The notes beneath the pieces are model-generated. The model searched no databases. It worked only from the letters and a program-made list of their open reading frames with translations, and was not told the origin of the DNA. The translations under genes were made by a program, and so were the position numbers. DNA of 64,000 nucleotides from a bacterium. GTDB lineage: Bacteria > Electryoneota > Electryoneia > Electryoneales > Electryoneaceae. How positions within the stretch are numbered: the stretch's first letter is position 1; each line of letters opens with the position of its first letter. Below, in pieces: positions 39,845 through 59,859 of this stretch. The stretch lies in contig OY769902.1 of assembly GCA_963669175.1 (NCBI GenBank), positions 288,001-352,000 of the forward strand, given 5' to 3'.

Positions 39845-40041
39845 GCTCTAGTCCTTTTGGTTCTTTGCATCAGCTACAAGGGGACTTCTCTCTTCTTACC
39901 GGATCAATATACATCTGAACTGACCCCACAGAGATATGCCATTCCCGAAATTAAACCGACATCACGCAATCTTCAGGATGACTCACTGAAAGGTCGGCAG
40001 AAAATGGTTGGCAAAAAGGGATTGTAAAAGTATTTTCAGTA

Positions 40042-40314
40042 AAAAGGGACCGCATAAATTCTGCAGCAAAAGGGACCGTATAAATTCTGTAGCAAAAGGG
40101 GACTGTTTCCTTTTCGTCGCGCGGAGATAAAATACTTCGTGACAAAGGGAATCGAAAAGGTGGCTGTACCCTTTTGCCTGTGACGAGGAACAACACTCTA
40201 TTCAGCCCCATGAGATCAGATTCCACCACTGCGAAAAGGGTACAGTTTCCTTTTCCATAAAATCAGCGTAATTGTGCAGTATATGGCGCGGAGAAAAGGA
40301 TCCCGTCCCCTTTT
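40042..40314. repeat. REP-like element C: four AAAAGG-N9-CCTTTT palindromes plus 26-bp tandem repeats
   Basis: Palindromes at 40094, 40155, 40234, 40294; inverted homolog at 56035-56246. Confidence 0.85.
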
Positions 40315-40369
40315 CGTGGCAGTTCCTCCCCTGTCACGATGACGGAATATATTCGGGAACAGCTTTTAT

Positions 40370-55291: not shown

Positions 55292-55870
55292 ATGCGAATT
55301 CTAGCCTGTGATGACGACCATTTAATGCGTACGATTGTTGCGGATTGGCTAACGAACCTGGGACATGAAGTTGTTACTGCGGAAGATGGTTTACGTGCAT
55401 GGGTCCGTTACAATGAGGAACACTATCCTGTAATTATTTCCGACGTGATGATGCCCAACATGAACGGCTATGAACTCTGCAAAAAGGTTCGCGCCGCCAA
55501 CCATGAAAAATACACCTACATCATTGTCCTGACCGCCCTTGAAGGAAAAGACAGCTACCTGAAAGCACTGCATGCCGGGGCGGATGACTTCATCAACAAA
55601 CCCTTCGATGAAGCTATCCTGGAAGCACGTCTTGAAGTCGCCCAGCGTATCCTGAAATTACAGACTACAGTAAAACAGCTTGAGGGACTGCTGCCCGTCT
55701 GCTCTTACTGCAAACGCATCCGTAAAGACGATGAAGAGCATAACCACACCGAATGGGTTGCGATTGATTCGTATATCCAGGAAAAGGCGAATGTGGACTT
55801 TTCGCACGGCGTCTGCCCGGATTGTTACAACGCGATCATCCGTCCGCAGTTGGGGGACGAGGACGACTGA
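55292..55870 (+). CDS. response regulator receiver with C-terminal CxxC...CxxC domain
   Basis: DDD, SDVMMP, KPF; CSYCKRIR...SHGVCPDC. Confidence 0.9.
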   Translation: MRILACDDDHLMRTIVADWLTNLGHEVVTAEDGLRAWVRYNEEHYPVIISDVMMPNMNGYELCKKVRAANHEKYTYIIVLTALEGKDSYLKALHAGADDFINKPFDEAILEARLEVAQRILKLQTTVKQLEGLLPVCSYCKRIRKDDEEHNHTEWVAIDSYIQEKANVDFSHGVCPDCYNAIIRPQLGDEDD

Positions 55871-56034
55871 TTGAATCCGGAACGTATCTGTATTTGAAGC
55901 AAACCGCAGTGCATTGTTTCACACCCCGGCTTCGCGAGTGCTGAAATTCATTCGACCGTTTGGCTTGACTGCTTGCTGTCGGGTTTCAATCCGCGGCCAG
56001 ACTACTCCCATTGTCACAACGAGATGTTACCACG

Positions 56035-56246
56035 AAAAGGGGACGGGATCCTTTTCCCCGCTTATTTGCCGAACACTCTCGCTGACCTTGCGGAAAAGGA
56101 AACTGTACCCTTTTCGCAGTGACAAAACCTTATCACAGGAAACAGAATAGAGCGTTGTACTTCTTCACAGGCAAAAGGGAACAGCCACCTTTTCAATTCA
56201 CCGCATCACACAGTATTGCATCGCTTCACAACGAAAAGGAAACTGT
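56035..56246. repeat. REP-like element C (inverted copy), fourth palindrome split by IS110
   Basis: Palindromes at 56035, 56094, 56173, 56234; remainder at 57720-57732. Confidence 0.85.
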
Positions 56247-56356
56247 TATAATGCATAAGTAGAAGCAGCCAACCTCGACGCAGCACACATGTCGGGCTAA
56301 CTTGTGTTAAAGGCGTAACACGAGGTTACCCGTAGTACTTACACGAGGAGGTTGGC

Positions 56357-57403
56357 ATGCAGGCAGTATACTACATCGGTCTGGACGTACACAAGAAGAA
56401 GATTGCGTATTGTATTCAAACGTCGGCAGGTAAGATAGTTGACCAGGGCATGGTTGCATCCACCCGTCCTGCTCTTTCAAACTGGGTTGCGAAGTTACCG
56501 ACTCCCTGGGCGGCGGCGATGGAAGCGACGTTGTTTACAGGCTGGATTTATGATTTTCTGAAGCCGCATGCATCGGCACTGAAGGTGGCACACCCGGCGA
56601 TGCTGAAGGCGATTACGGCGGCGAAGAAAAAGAATGACAAGGATGACGCCAAACGTATCGCAGATCTGCTCCGTATCGACCTGTTGCCGGAATGTTACAT
56701 GGCACCATCAGATATCCGTGAGCTACGCCGTGTGCTGCGATTTCGCAACAAAATCGTCCGGCATGCCGTGAGCCTGAAGAACAAGACGGCCGGATTACTG
56801 ATGGAAGTGGGCGCTGAGTATTCGAAAAGGCGTCTACATGGCAAACGCTACTTCCATGAATTGCTCATTGAACTTGATACGCTGGATGAGATTCCGACCA
56901 CTGTGGTTGAGATGTTGCGAATGAATCGTGCCGGCCTTGAGCTGTTTGAGACGCTGCAACTTCAACTGGTTAAGGCGCTGGCTACGCATTCGCTGTTGGC
57001 AGATCGGGTGAAGTTGTTGATGACGATCCGTGGCATTGGTGTGATGACCGCGCTGACATGGGCGTTGGAAGTGGGTGAAGTGGAACGGTTTGCCAGTATT
57101 TCCAAGGCAATCAGTTACTGCGGTTTGTGTAGTGCGCAGCAGGAATCAGCGGGAAAAACGAAACGGGGACCGTTGTCCAAGAAACGAAACAAACATTTGC
57201 AGACGAAACTGATCGAAGCGGCGAAGCTGGCGCCACAGTGGCATCCAGAGCTGCAGATTGTGCATGACCGTGAACTGGCACGCAGCAATCCCAACCGGGC
57301 AACATTAGCGGTAGCACGAAAGCTGGTAGCTTATCTGATGGCGGTTGATCGACGGGGAACGCCGTTTGTTCAAGCCGACACGACAACAGAACTTGTAAAC
57401 TAA
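56357..57403 (+). CDS. IS110-family DEDD recombinase/transposase
   Basis: IGLDVHK, MEAT, KNDKDDA (DEDD); IRGIG; ESAGK serine motif. Confidence 0.95.
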   Translation: MQAVYYIGLDVHKKKIAYCIQTSAGKIVDQGMVASTRPALSNWVAKLPTPWAAAMEATLFTGWIYDFLKPHASALKVAHPAMLKAITAAKKKNDKDDAKRIADLLRIDLLPECYMAPSDIRELRRVLRFRNKIVRHAVSLKNKTAGLLMEVGAEYSKRRLHGKRYFHELLIELDTLDEIPTTVVEMLRMNRAGLELFETLQLQLVKALATHSLLADRVKLLMTIRGIGVMTALTWALEVGEVERFASISKAISYCGLCSAQQESAGKTKRGPLSKKRNKHLQTKLIEAAKLAPQWHPELQIVHDRELARSNPNRATLAVARKLVAYLMAVDRRGTPFVQADTTTELVN

Positions 57404-57429
57404 CATTCTATGCCACAACGCGTATTGTA

Positions 57430-57600
57430 AACCGGACCTGCCCGCCAGGCCTCACGAAACAGGGGACTATGCTTCGGGCATCCTTGAAACTGTTTAGAGG
57501 CTGGTCGGGTGATCCCTAACTTCATCTTCTGTGACGGGCCATATGGCCCCGAGACAGACCATGAATGTCTGGCCGTAAGGTCTGTTGGCGGCCCACGCGA
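57430..57600 (+). ncRNA. putative bridge/seek RNA of the IS110 element (boundaries approximate)
   Basis: Stem-enclosed loop with AGGGGAC and GAAACTGT matching both halves of the target; TAAC and CATGAATGT matching the donor junction. Confidence 0.75.
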
Positions 57601-57831
57601 GAGCGAGCAAAGGTCAGGAAAAACGCGTTGAGGAAGAGGTTAGGCATCGTCCTGGTTCAGAGATGAATCAAAGGACTCGGGAAAACTCCGTCTTCCCCTT
57701 GACTCTACTTATCATGAAAGTCCCCTTTTGCTGCCAATATTGGCTCGAGAGCGTAGCGATCTACAAGAATTTCCGGCTTTCGAGCATGCTTCCACCTTGC
57801 GAGATCGTCCTTTCCGCGCCTATTCTGTAAC

Positions 57832-59859
57832 ATGACACGGAAAACGGGACGATCCATCTTACCGGCTTTGATTCAGACCCATCCCGCCTGGGTTCTCTTC
57901 GGGATTGCTTTGTTGCTCCGCATCGTCCAGCTCGTTTTCGTATATCGCCAACCCGGTTTCGATCTTCCGATTGTTGATGAAGTCCATTTTGACATCATGG
58001 CCCGCAACCTCGCGGACGGCACTACGATGCATGACGGTCCCTTCTTCCGTCCGCCGCTCTGGTCCATCCTGCTTGCCGGCCCCTACAAACTATTTGGTCA
58101 GCATTTCTTTCTGGCGAGGTTCCTGAACACCATTCTTGGTTCGCTTGCGGTAACGGCTTCCTTTCGCCTTGGCAAACGTCTGTTTCATCAGCGTGTCGCC
58201 TTTACCGGTGCATTGATCTTTGCCTGCCAGGGGTTCTTCATCCATAACAGCACAACCGGGCTGGCTTCCACCCTGCTGGTCTATCTCAGCCTGGAAGCGT
58301 TGCAGGTTACGTTGTATGCTCGCAATCAAAATCGCCTTCGATACTGGCTTATTGCCGGACTACTGTGGGGACTTGCTGCCATAGCCAAACCGGTCGTGCT
58401 GGTGCCGGTGGTTGTCATTCTCTGTGATACCTTGTTCCGTAAAACAGCAACCGCCGGGTATCGTCAAAAAACGGCCGCGCTGTTTGTGCTTGGGCTGTTG
58501 TTGCCCATTATGCCTGTGACCCTGCGAAACTCGATTTCCGGCGATGCCGTCCTGGTATCTTCCAATGGCGGAATAAATTTGTATATGGGCAACAACGAAC
58601 AGGCGAATGGCGTCATCGTGTTTCATCCTGTCCTTGGCGTGGGCTGGACCGAGACCAATGCGCACTCGTGGGCGGAATCGGAAACCGGATACATGATGAG
58701 TCCGTCCGAAGCTTCATCGTGGTACACACAACAGGCGGTGCAGTTCTGGTTCTATCAGCCCAAACGTGCCTTCAAGCTGATACTGGATAAAGCCTATTAC
58801 ACATTCTCCGGGTTGATCTTCACCAACAATGGGAATCTCGGCTTTTACGCAAAGAGCAATCTTCTTTTACGGTCACTGCTTCCCCTGGGTTGGGGCGCTG
58901 TTTTCCCATTCGCATTGGTCGGCATGGTTCTCGCCTTCCGCAGGTCCGGCAATCATCGCTTGACGATGCTGGTAGCTTTCAGTTACCTGGGAATCTGTAT
59001 TCTCTTTTTTGTGCTGGCCCGTTTCCGGCTTCCAGCGGAAGGTATCCTGGTTCATTTCGCGGCATACACCGGGTGGTTCCTGCTGGGGCGCGAAGAAGTA
59101 ACTCAACAGGCTTCCGGAAAAATTCGCCTGCTGATATCGCTGGTTGTTGTTCTCCTGGCTTTGCCGGTGAATATGAACCTGAAGGGGATGAGCCGTTCCA
59201 TTGATTATGCTCACAGTTATTACCTGAATGGTCAGCTCCTGGCTCGTGAACACCGTTACTCGGAAGCGGCCCAGGCATTTCGTGACGCTATCGCACTGAA
59301 TAAGCGTATCCCACTCAGCTACCTGTATCTCGGGCAGGTTATGATGAAAATGGACAGCACAGAGCAGGCCATAAATTATTTCAAGCATGAAATCGCCACC
59401 TTGCCGAAAACCCAGTATTTCTCTGACCTGGTACTAAATGCTCAAGCCAATCTTGGACGCGCGTATATGAAGGTCGGCGATAAAGCGGAAGCGGAGCGAA
59501 CTTTCCGGGAGGCGCGTCAAATCTATGGTGGTGATCCCGGGGTAAATAAATACCTTACCAGTCTCATACTGGAGCGTACACGTGAAAAGCTAGTGCAAGA
59601 CGACTGGAACACAGCGCTTGAGAACCTTGAAGAAGCTGCCACTATCAACCCAAATGAACCGGCGCTTGCGTTTGCTTTTGCGGTAGCACGGTTCCATACC
59701 GGAAGCCCTGAGCACGCGAACCACATTATGGCTATCATCCTGAAGCATCACCCGGATTACTCGCCAGCTCAACGATGGCGGGATCAGGAGTGGCGCCCCG
59801 ACAGCCATGATATCCAGGAGCTGTTGCTCCCCTTCCTGGATGATGGCGAAAAAAAGTGA
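57832..59859 (+). CDS. GT39/ArnT/PMT-like membrane glycosyltransferase with C-terminal TPRs
   Basis: IVDE..F, FRPPL, NGGINLYMGNN, ARFRLP; TPR tail. Confidence 0.8.
   Translation: MTRKTGRSILPALIQTHPAWVLFGIALLLRIVQLVFVYRQPGFDLPIVDEVHFDIMARNLADGTTMHDGPFFRPPLWSILLAGPYKLFGQHFFLARFLNTILGSLAVTASFRLGKRLFHQRVAFTGALIFACQGFFIHNSTTGLASTLLVYLSLEALQVTLYARNQNRLRYWLIAGLLWGLAAIAKPVVLVPVVVILCDTLFRKTATAGYRQKTAALFVLGLLLPIMPVTLRNSISGDAVLVSSNGGINLYMGNNEQANGVIVFHPVLGVGWTETNAHSWAESETGYMMSPSEASSWYTQQAVQFWFYQPKRAFKLILDKAYYTFSGLIFTNNGNLGFYAKSNLLLRSLLPLGWGAVFPFALVGMVLAFRRSGNHRLTMLVAFSYLGICILFFVLARFRLPAEGILVHFAAYTGWFLLGREEVTQQASGKIRLLISLVVVLLALPVNMNLKGMSRSIDYAHSYYLNGQLLAREHRYSEAAQAFRDAIALNKRIPLSYLYLGQVMMKMDSTEQAINYFKHEIATLPKTQYFSDLVLNAQANLGRAYMKVGDKAEAERTFREARQIYGGDPGVNKYLTSLILERTREKLVQDDWNTALENLEEAATINPNEPALAFAFAVARFHTGSPEHANHIMAIILKHHPDYSPAQRWRDQEWRPDSHDIQELLLPFLDDGEKK

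Follow-up and report, generated by a model that had tools for sequence, protein, structure and literature searches.

An insertion sequence (IS) of the IS110 family interrupts a hairpin of a repetitive extragenic palindromic (REP) family in the window analysed here, a stretch of 64,000 nucleotides (positions 288001-352000) in the single-contig genome (5,447,365 bases) of a bacterium of the Electryoneaceae. The element, which on its sequence features is an IS1111-type member of the IS110 family, very probably chooses its insertion site by means of an RNA encoded in its own 3' non-coding region, a reading to which we assign a probability of roughly 0.88. The anatomy of the element, the matches between predicted guides and flanks, the fact that the RNA is conserved and covaries, and the specificity of the copies for their site are direct observations. 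A preliminary description of this DNA had placed an IS110 element inside a REP-like palindrome, and the coordinates, the junctions and three single-mismatch versions of the target in the window have all been borne out.

Insertion into one class of REP hairpin

The element splits the fourth hairpin of a four-hairpin repeat module. A GT core stands at both junctions, and no longer repeat is present there: the left junction reads ...ACGAAAAGGAAACT-GT-TATAATGCAT (GT at 56245-56246) and the right junction ...TCATGAAA-GT-CCCCTTTTGCT (GT at 57720-57721), so that the left half of the hairpin ends in ...AAAAGGAAACT-GT (56246) and the right half begins with GT-CCCCTTTT (57720). When the flanks are abutted in silico with a single GT kept, the emptied site and 40060-40360 (reverse-complemented) align for a length of ~230 nt, with four conserved hairpins and diverged spacers between them. 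The reconstituted fourth hairpin lies one base apart from its intact counterpart at 40094-40114 (AAAAGGGGACTGTTTCCTTTT; reverse complement AAAAGGAAACAGTCCCCTTTT), with T versus A just 5' of the GT. The preliminary description regarded this counterpart as an empty homolog; an intact hairpin is indeed present in the same window, but it belongs to a paralogous copy of the repeat module and is not an orthologous empty site. One-mismatch versions of the 13-mer target GAAACTGTCCCCT lie at 40097 (AGGGGACTGTTTC), at 40237 (AGGGTACAGTTTC) and within 56094-56114 (AAAAGGAAACTGTACCCTTTT), all of them unoccupied. Directly before the intact hairpin, window positions 40041-40093 hold two tandem 26-nt units (AAAAGGGACCG[C/T]ATAAATTCTG[C/T]AGC), each of which begins like a hairpin left arm.

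The palindromes follow the pattern AAAAGG-N9-CCTTTT, of which there are 277 copies in the genome and none after shuffling. Tolerating one mismatch in an arm raises these numbers to 528 and 10. Where spacers of 5-13 nt are allowed, the loop measures exactly 9 nt in 277 of 289 matches, and the loops fall into a few discrete classes, among them GGACGGGAT (87 copies), AAACTGTCC (44), AAACTGTAC (28) and AAACAGTCC (26). The hairpins group into 234 clusters, 58 of which hold four hairpins, and in these four-hairpin modules the loops follow a fixed order from GGACGGGAT through AAACTGT[C/A]C and GTACAG[C/T]CA to AAAC[T/A]GTCC or AGGCAGTCC. By a crude mask of open reading frames (ORFs) of at least 150 aa, made without a gene caller, 51 of the 528 hairpins (9.7%) fall within such frames, compared with 85.1% of all genome positions. 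The exact pattern is also restricted in its distribution: across the 21 genomes searched it was counted 277 times in this genome, 66 times in a congener, 29 and 34 times in one sister genus and at most twice in each of the other 17.

The family is furthermore linked to a REP-associated tyrosine transposase (RAYT) gene. Ten matches to PF01797 were found in the genome, one of which (3618161-3618883, minus strand, a 241-aa frame) passes the model NF047646 'REP-associated tyrosine transposase' narrowly, this Y1 gene scoring 82.3 bits against a cut-off of 80. The RAYT-like gene is flanked by four-hairpin modules at 3617859-3618095 and 3618847-3619093, both made of sister loop classes and in direct orientation. 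Given the copy number, the loop classes, the clustering, the location, the distribution and the RAYT link, the label 'REP-like' that the palindromes had been given is justified: they are a high-copy, extragenic, lineage-restricted and RAYT-linked REP family. The loops of the RAYT-flanking modules are, in order, GGACTGCTA, TAGCTGTCC, G[G/T]ACAGTTA (GTACAGTTA in the first module and GGACAGTTA in the second) and TAACAGTCC. Among the clusters of a single hairpin in this genome, those of the TAACAGTCC class (reverse complement GGACTGTTA) are the most numerous at 36, and the class is also frequent among the listed hairpins of the congener.

A blastn search of the genome returned a second full copy of the element at 1258861-1260337 (minus strand), 99.7% identical with five differences, all within the transposase ORF, together with two truncated copies, one of them 100% identical for 312 nt and the other for 225 nt, and one 91% relic. 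These four near-identical copies are four separate loci. At the left junction each of the four, with identities of 99.6% or more, reads GAAAAGGAAACT-GT, at the same hairpin position and in the same orientation, and the three that retain a right junction read GT-CCC[C/A]TTTT. Their wider flanks are unrelated, sharing at most ~108 nt of repeat module, a stretch that the two truncated copies have in common upstream at 93.5% identity; the copy in the window occupies the fourth hairpin of its module and the two truncated copies the second. Since the target class makes up only 86 of ~530 hairpins and took four of four insertions, the element is clearly specific for one hairpin class within the whole family. 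None of the four sits in unrelated sequence, and the earlier suggestion that an intergenic repeat family serves the element as a safe harbour agrees both with this and with the extragenic position of the REP copies.

All copies of the element and of the palindrome could be tabulated by their match to the target, as the preliminary description had proposed. The exact 13-mer GAAACTGTCCCCT is present in 82 unoccupied copies and single-mismatch 13-mers in 116, the commonest being GAAACTGTaCCCT (31 copies), GAAACaGTCCCCT (30) and cAAACTGTCCCCT (24), and these three main classes have their mismatch at +1, at -1 and at the guide's far end. The element thus occupies 4 of the 86 exact sites and none of the 116 single-mismatch sites, a difference that is weak (C(86,4)/C(202,4) = 0.032, one-sided). 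The idea that unoccupied sites hint at mismatch sensitivity finds no support in them, as the 82 perfect targets are likewise empty; with 82 exact and 116 one-mismatch sites unoccupied, an empty site says almost nothing.

Two of the incomplete copies have features of their own. In the truncated copy at 2995185-2995421 (minus strand), internal sequence ...CCACCCGTCC (window position 56469) runs straight on into CCTTTTCC, part of the right hairpin arm. What lay between an internal GTCC and that of the right junction has been deleted; aberrant action of the recombinase on a pseudo-site could account for this, as could a simple deletion by microhomology. The 91%-identical relic is a left end of ~160 nt (4172435-4172595, minus strand) with another left flank, GAGAAGCT-GT (longer: GGCGAAATCGAGAAGCT-GT), and has on either side a copy of another repeat, TTTCGCAACACGTTTTCC(C)GGCAAT. 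It lacks the guide region, so no judgement on its target is possible.

The predicted guide RNA and its covariation with targets

The transposase gene is followed by a 318-nt 3' non-coding region (57404-57721), in comparison with ~110 nt on its 5' side, and this region folds with z = -2.27 against shuffles. The homologue set used to define the RNA comprises 80 loci with 59-67% protein identity, mostly from metagenome-assembled genomes of Thermodesulfobacteriota, which share the termini of the element. RNAalifold on 30 sequences (the window and 29 homologues) gave 39 pairs, 21 of them with compensatory changes, arranged in two internal-loop domains. The first is the predicted target-binding loop, the outer stem of which consists of 13 pairs, some with changes on both sides. 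The guide for the top strand (T guide) lies on the 5' side of this loop and the guide for the bottom strand (B guide) on its 3' side; they are contiguous matches of 7 nt (T) and 8 nt (B) on opposite sides of one internal loop, overlap at GT and jointly spell the 13-mer GAAACTGTCCCCT exactly. Lengthened to 57457-57467, the T guide matches at 9 of 11 positions. In published IS1111 RNAs, termed seekRNAs, the segment matching the top strand is likewise 5' of the one matching the bottom strand, with overlap at the point of insertion (PMC11187229), and the predicted RNA of the present element has the same order.

The second domain would face the donor. Its segment CATGAATGT corresponds to the right end of the element plus core (CATGAAAGT) at eight of nine positions, and the segment tracks the right end in the G-to-A variants (ATAGATGT; 5 loci) and in G009, a relative from the same family described below. 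On the donor loop's 5' side, CCCTAAC, which is CCCAAAC in relatives, was considered as a candidate guide for the left end of the element and rejected, its covariation with left ends being inconsistent.

Evidence for guidance also comes from relatives. Homologous elements elsewhere keep the same termini (GTTTGAATGCATAAG... and ...CTTATCATGGATGT) in very different flanks, and guides and flanks vary together. For the B guide, scored over six bases 5' of TGT at the 68 loci of 81 that were usable, the match to the left flank averages 4.18 of 6 within a locus and 2.02 of 6 between loci, a difference reached in 0 of 10,000 permutations; for the T guide (57 of 81 loci usable) the match to the right flank averages 7.89 of 11 within and 6.50 of 11 between loci, with 0 of 5,000 permutations. 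In many homologous copies (L003, L005, L022, L031, L039, L040, L041 and others) the first 8-12 nt of the right flank are tandemly repeated after the junction, as in GTCCCCATTTCTGTGTCCCCATTTCT and CCCCGGAACTCTCCCGGAACTCTG; the targets of these copies may themselves be tandem repeats.

Two cases of natural retargeting among the relatives, in which guides and targets changed together, point the same way as the covariation. G009 carries two copies of a 68%-identical element with the core GG and the T guide ATGGTCGGGCC; in both copies the right flank, GGCCCGACCA, is the arm of a different hairpin, and the donor-side segment ATGAATGG matches the element's own right end. The other case, X3, comes from a seawater metagenome run of an unrelated study and is a variant ~95-97% identical to the present element (46 substitutions and 4 gaps over 1,364 aligned nt), covering window positions 56268-57724, with its right flank recovered and its left flank not. 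Its B guide is GTAGCTGT (two substitutions), its T guide is one G shorter through a 1-nt deletion, and its right flank, GTCCC+TGGATTTTCC, belongs to a sister REP class. This class, GTAGCTGTCCC[A/T]GGATTTTC, has 35 copies in the present genome, two of them exact for the X3 flank, and is the one flanking the RAYT gene. At a contig depth of 4-6 single differences in X3 could be errors; the coordinated pattern is unlikely to be. The fragments of the element in the congener G001 (76-77% identity) lie on separate short contigs and look decayed, and their guides and flanks are unpairable.

Proposed mechanism and alternative explanations

In the proposed mechanism an RNA (seekRNA or bridge RNA) encoded in the 3' non-coding region of the element directs the choice of site. 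At GT+CCCCT the top strand would pair with AGGGGAC, at GAAAC+TGT the bottom strand with GAAACTGT, so that both guides would specify GAAACTGTCCCCT with the crossover at the shared GT. This 13-mer consists of the loop and the inner arm bases of one REP hairpin class, and with an extragenic, RAYT-linked hairpin as target all insertions would be intergenic and alike in position and orientation. Excision by the DEDD transposase would yield a circle whose joined ends form TTGACT-17-TATAAT, and the circle would recombine into a new hairpin with no target duplication beyond GT. Presumably the RNA is made and bound, circles do form and the element is still active.

Several observations weigh against this account. 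Only four of the 86 perfect sites are occupied, two of them by truncated copies, and the present-day activity of the element may accordingly be low. Rfam 15 gave no match at window positions 55900-57900 at E <= 1, which is why the RNA was defined from homologues. The donor-side segment has a T where the right end has an A just 5' of the core, a mismatch at a position where three other loci have one too, and no convincing RNA partner was found for the left end. Neither a circle junction nor a join across the element was seen in the contigs of four runs, but contigs cannot show rare forms and this result counts neither for nor against the account. A search of the congener G001 and of G002 and G012 for an orthologous empty site found none: G001 has the right-flank gene (65% DNA identity) next to a different upstream neighbour and lacks the repeat module there, and G002 and G012 gave no match. 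Loci count as independent in the permutations, yet a single genome or a single IS contributed several of them; the permutation counts consequently overstate significance, and the effect is still large. Finally, the natural flanks of relatives often differ from their own guides, as the within-locus means show, and either mismatches are tolerated or the flanks have drifted.

Other explanations of the shared insertion site differ in what they make of the hairpin. The transposase might read the REP hairpin as folded DNA, protein and structure alone setting the site and the RNA-like 3' matches being incidental. All 82 free exact 13-mers and all four occupied sites are in hairpin context, which makes sequence and structure inseparable in this genome, and in ISPpu10 a target stem-loop is described as adding specificity (2026 preprint 10.64898/2026.03.19.712850). 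Covariation of guides with flanks across relatives is not expected of structure alone, nor are the guides and targets altered together in G009 and X3, and many relatives lie in flanks without an evident hairpin; recognition by fold alone is accordingly judged highly unlikely. The least likely alternative turns the relationship around, taking the palindrome halves GAAAAGG... and ...CCTTTTC as the element's inverted ends and the genomic hairpins as solo-end derivatives or derivatives resembling miniature inverted-repeat transposable elements. It would account for the blastn alignments between copies extending 12-14 nt past the GT on either side, but 528 hairpins stand against four copies of the element, the hairpins have intact 9-nt loops in discrete classes and a RAYT gene goes with them, a normal member of the family results when the flanks are abutted, and homologous elements keep their termini in quite different flanks.

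A shared site could also descend from one original insertion, copies having spread by homologous recombination or gene conversion between modules. The ~108 nt of upstream module common to the two truncated copies is what such spreading would leave behind. The two full copies, by contrast, have no flanking sequence beyond the hairpin halves in common, be it with one another or with the truncated copies, different positions of the module were entered (second and fourth hairpin), and the end-points of the truncations differ, so that this history, too, is very improbable. The RNA-guided account is preferred over all three.

Element anatomy, wider meaning and known systems

The coordinates of the features are collected below. 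The module and the element are located between a response-regulator-like ORF (55292-55870) and a 675-aa ORF of membrane/tetratricopeptide repeat type (57832-59859).

Table. Features of the insertion locus and its paralogue, in window coordinates.
Feature	Position	Strand	Remarks
Inverted paralogous four-hairpin module	40094..40314	-	hairpins at 40094, 40155, 40234, 40294; hairpin-4 counterpart 40094-40114 intact, one base off target
REP hairpin 1 of composite module, AAAAGG-GGACGGGAT-CCTTTT	56035..56055	+	commonest loop class, 87 copies
REP hairpin 2, loop AAACTGTAC	56094..56114	+	one mismatch to target of the element (C>A directly 3' of GT core); empty
REP hairpin 3, loop GAACAGCCA	56173..56193	+	
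REP hairpin 4, left half	56234..56246	+	arm AAAAGG, loop part AAACT, first GT core
IS element	56247..57721	+	1,475 nt, right-hand GT counted in
TATAAT at left terminus	56247..56252	+	-10 half of predicted circle-junction promoter
Left subterminal inverted repeat ATAAGTAGA	56255..56263	+	
Transposase gene	56357..57403	+	348 aa; DEDD_Tnp_IS110 residues 7-150, Transposase_20 residues 219-299, motif GLCSAQQESAG
Target-binding loop of predicted seekRNA/bridge RNA	57441..57509	+	outer stem 57441-57454 with 57496-57509, inner hairpin 57469-57481
T guide AGGGGAC (predicted)	57461..57467	+	complement of top strand GTCCCCT (core + right flank)
B guide GAAACTGT (predicted)	57486..57493	+	same as left flank + core, hence complementary to bottom strand
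Second, donor-side internal-loop domain (predicted)	57510..57580	+	CATGAATGT (57560-57568) vs right IS end + core CATGAAAGT: 8/9
TTGACT	57699..57704	+	-35 half of predicted circle-junction promoter
Right subterminal inverted repeat TCTACTTAT	57704..57712		partner of ATAAGTAGA
Second GT core and REP hairpin 4, right half	57720..57729	+	loop part CC, arm CCTTTT

The assignment to the IS110 family rests on strong profile matches of the transposase, which scores 73.2 bits against Pfam PF01548 (cut-off 29) in its N-terminal, DEDD/RuvC-like domain, 61.9 bits against PF02371 (cut-off 21.3) in its C-terminal domain and 176.7 bits against NCBIfam NF033542 'IS110 family RNA-guided transposase' (cut-off 140). 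The layout with a long non-coding region 3' of the transposase gene and subterminal repeats is the one described for IS1111 elements (PMC11187229, PMC11208160). In comparison with the published IS1111 motif GL-P----S(t)G (PMC11187229), the transposase has Ser for Pro and an extra Ala ahead of the Gly; this ES-A-G form of the serine motif is present in 79 of the 80 tabulated homologues, the remaining one reading ESAAK. The subterminal inverted repeats are perfect over 9 bp, or match at 12 of 13 positions with one indel, in comparison with published lengths of 11-13 bp (PMC11187229) or 7-17 bp (PMC11208160). Terminal extensions beyond the repeats are given as 7 bp on the left and 3 bp on the right for IS1111 elements; here they amount to 8 nt (TATAATGC) and 7 nt (CATGAAA) beyond the perfect 9-bp repeat and to ~4 and 4 with the gapped 13-bp repeat, the lengths depending on how the repeat and the GT are assigned. 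When the ends are abutted through one GT, TTGACT and TATAAT come to stand 17 nt apart as a predicted consensus sigma-70 promoter that would exist at the circle junction only, the chromosomal sequence at the corresponding -35 position being CTTCAC; junction promoters have been described for the IS family (PMC11187229).

A second, unrelated IS110-family element of ~1,375 nt is present in 12 near-identical copies in the genome (e.g. 844571-845945, approximate), none of them inside the window, and has 26% protein identity to the element studied here. The sequence is ...AAAT-CGAGTTCCTATG at the left junction and (A/G)GAA(C/T)A(A/G)CTAT in the right flank. Seven of the 12 have the outer edge of the same REP module as their left flank, ~35-40 nt past the ATCCCGTCC hairpin. 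The left flank of one copy, at ~4232900-4233100, consists of a tandem 16-nt unit, ATCGAATCAGCAATAG[A/C], repeated at least nine times, and a flank similar to this array, ...TCGAATCAGCAATAAC..., is found at two other copies.

What the locus offers is chiefly an IS1111-type element from a lineage distant from those studied so far, scoring ~30 bits against the solved recombinases of IS621 and ISCro4, in which the target, the core, both target guides and one donor-side guide can be read straight from the sequence. The genome amounts to a natural titration series for guide specificity, with 86 perfect sites and three single-mismatch classes of 31, 30 and 24 copies, and the near-identical X3 variant on a sister REP class illustrates how few changes retarget such an element in nature. 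It is a tentative and rather doubtful suggestion that the REP family might provide diversified landing pads among which IS variants move by few guide changes, that the fold of the target hairpin might be a second, RNA-independent determinant, and that the second IS110-family element might exploit the module as well, making for a three-way relationship between RAYT, REP and IS110; if true, a host-tolerated repeat would set the pace and direction of guide evolution. The present element leaves the current picture of IS110 biology unchanged.

Both halves of the proposed behaviour have precedents. REP targeting has been shown for ISPa11, ISPpu9, ISPpu10, ISPsy8 and ISRm19/22 (PMC1525189) and the RNA guidance of IS110-family elements in 2024 (PMC11187229, PMC11208160), so the element adds a member to a known group, and the ISfinder-wide supplements of the two latter papers might already include a close relative. 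Among the closest known systems is ISPa11, an IS1111-family element of Pseudomonas aeruginosa, which also has a non-coding region 3' of the transposase gene and targets REP sequences (PMC11187229; PMC1525189). The seekRNA of ISPa11, which co-purifies with its transposase, matches the top strand in a segment 5' of the one that matches the bottom strand (PMC11187229), whereas the RNA here is a prediction. Host lineage, REP family and target sequence all differ.

IS621 of E. coli, an IS110-group element, has a DEDD recombinase and an RNA whose two loops pair with target and donor around a 2-nt core; its natural targets are REP elements, with perfect guide matches strongly preferred (PMC11208160). 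It has a CT core and carries its RNA in the left end, unlike the element here with its GT core and predicted right-end RNA. The similarity between the two proteins is remote (29.9 bits and E = 3.6e-6 by phmmer against PDB entry 8wt6), as is that to ISCro4 (30.6 bits against 9t56). Targeting of REP by IS621 was reportedly described by Choi et al. as early as 2003. ISPpu9 and ISPpu10 of Pseudomonas putida KT2440 are multi-copy IS110-family elements found only in REP or conserved intergenic stem-loops (PMC12288879, PMC8450116); they belong to the IS110 group, unlike the IS1111-type element here, and in ISPpu10 the stem-loop adjoins the paired target, extending it in the 5' direction, whereas the 13-mer predicted to pair here is the hairpin loop with its inner arms.

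The repeat family resembles the REP/RAYT systems (REPINs, BIMEs) in its hundreds of extragenic, clustered and lineage-restricted palindromes and in the Y1 gene that they flank. The usual arrangement of REP sequences is the doublet; here four-hairpin modules have a fixed loop class at each position, and the modules flanking the RAYT gene are made of sister classes in direct orientation. Remote as it is in sequence from the solved recombinases, the element probably works like the published members of the IS1111 group.

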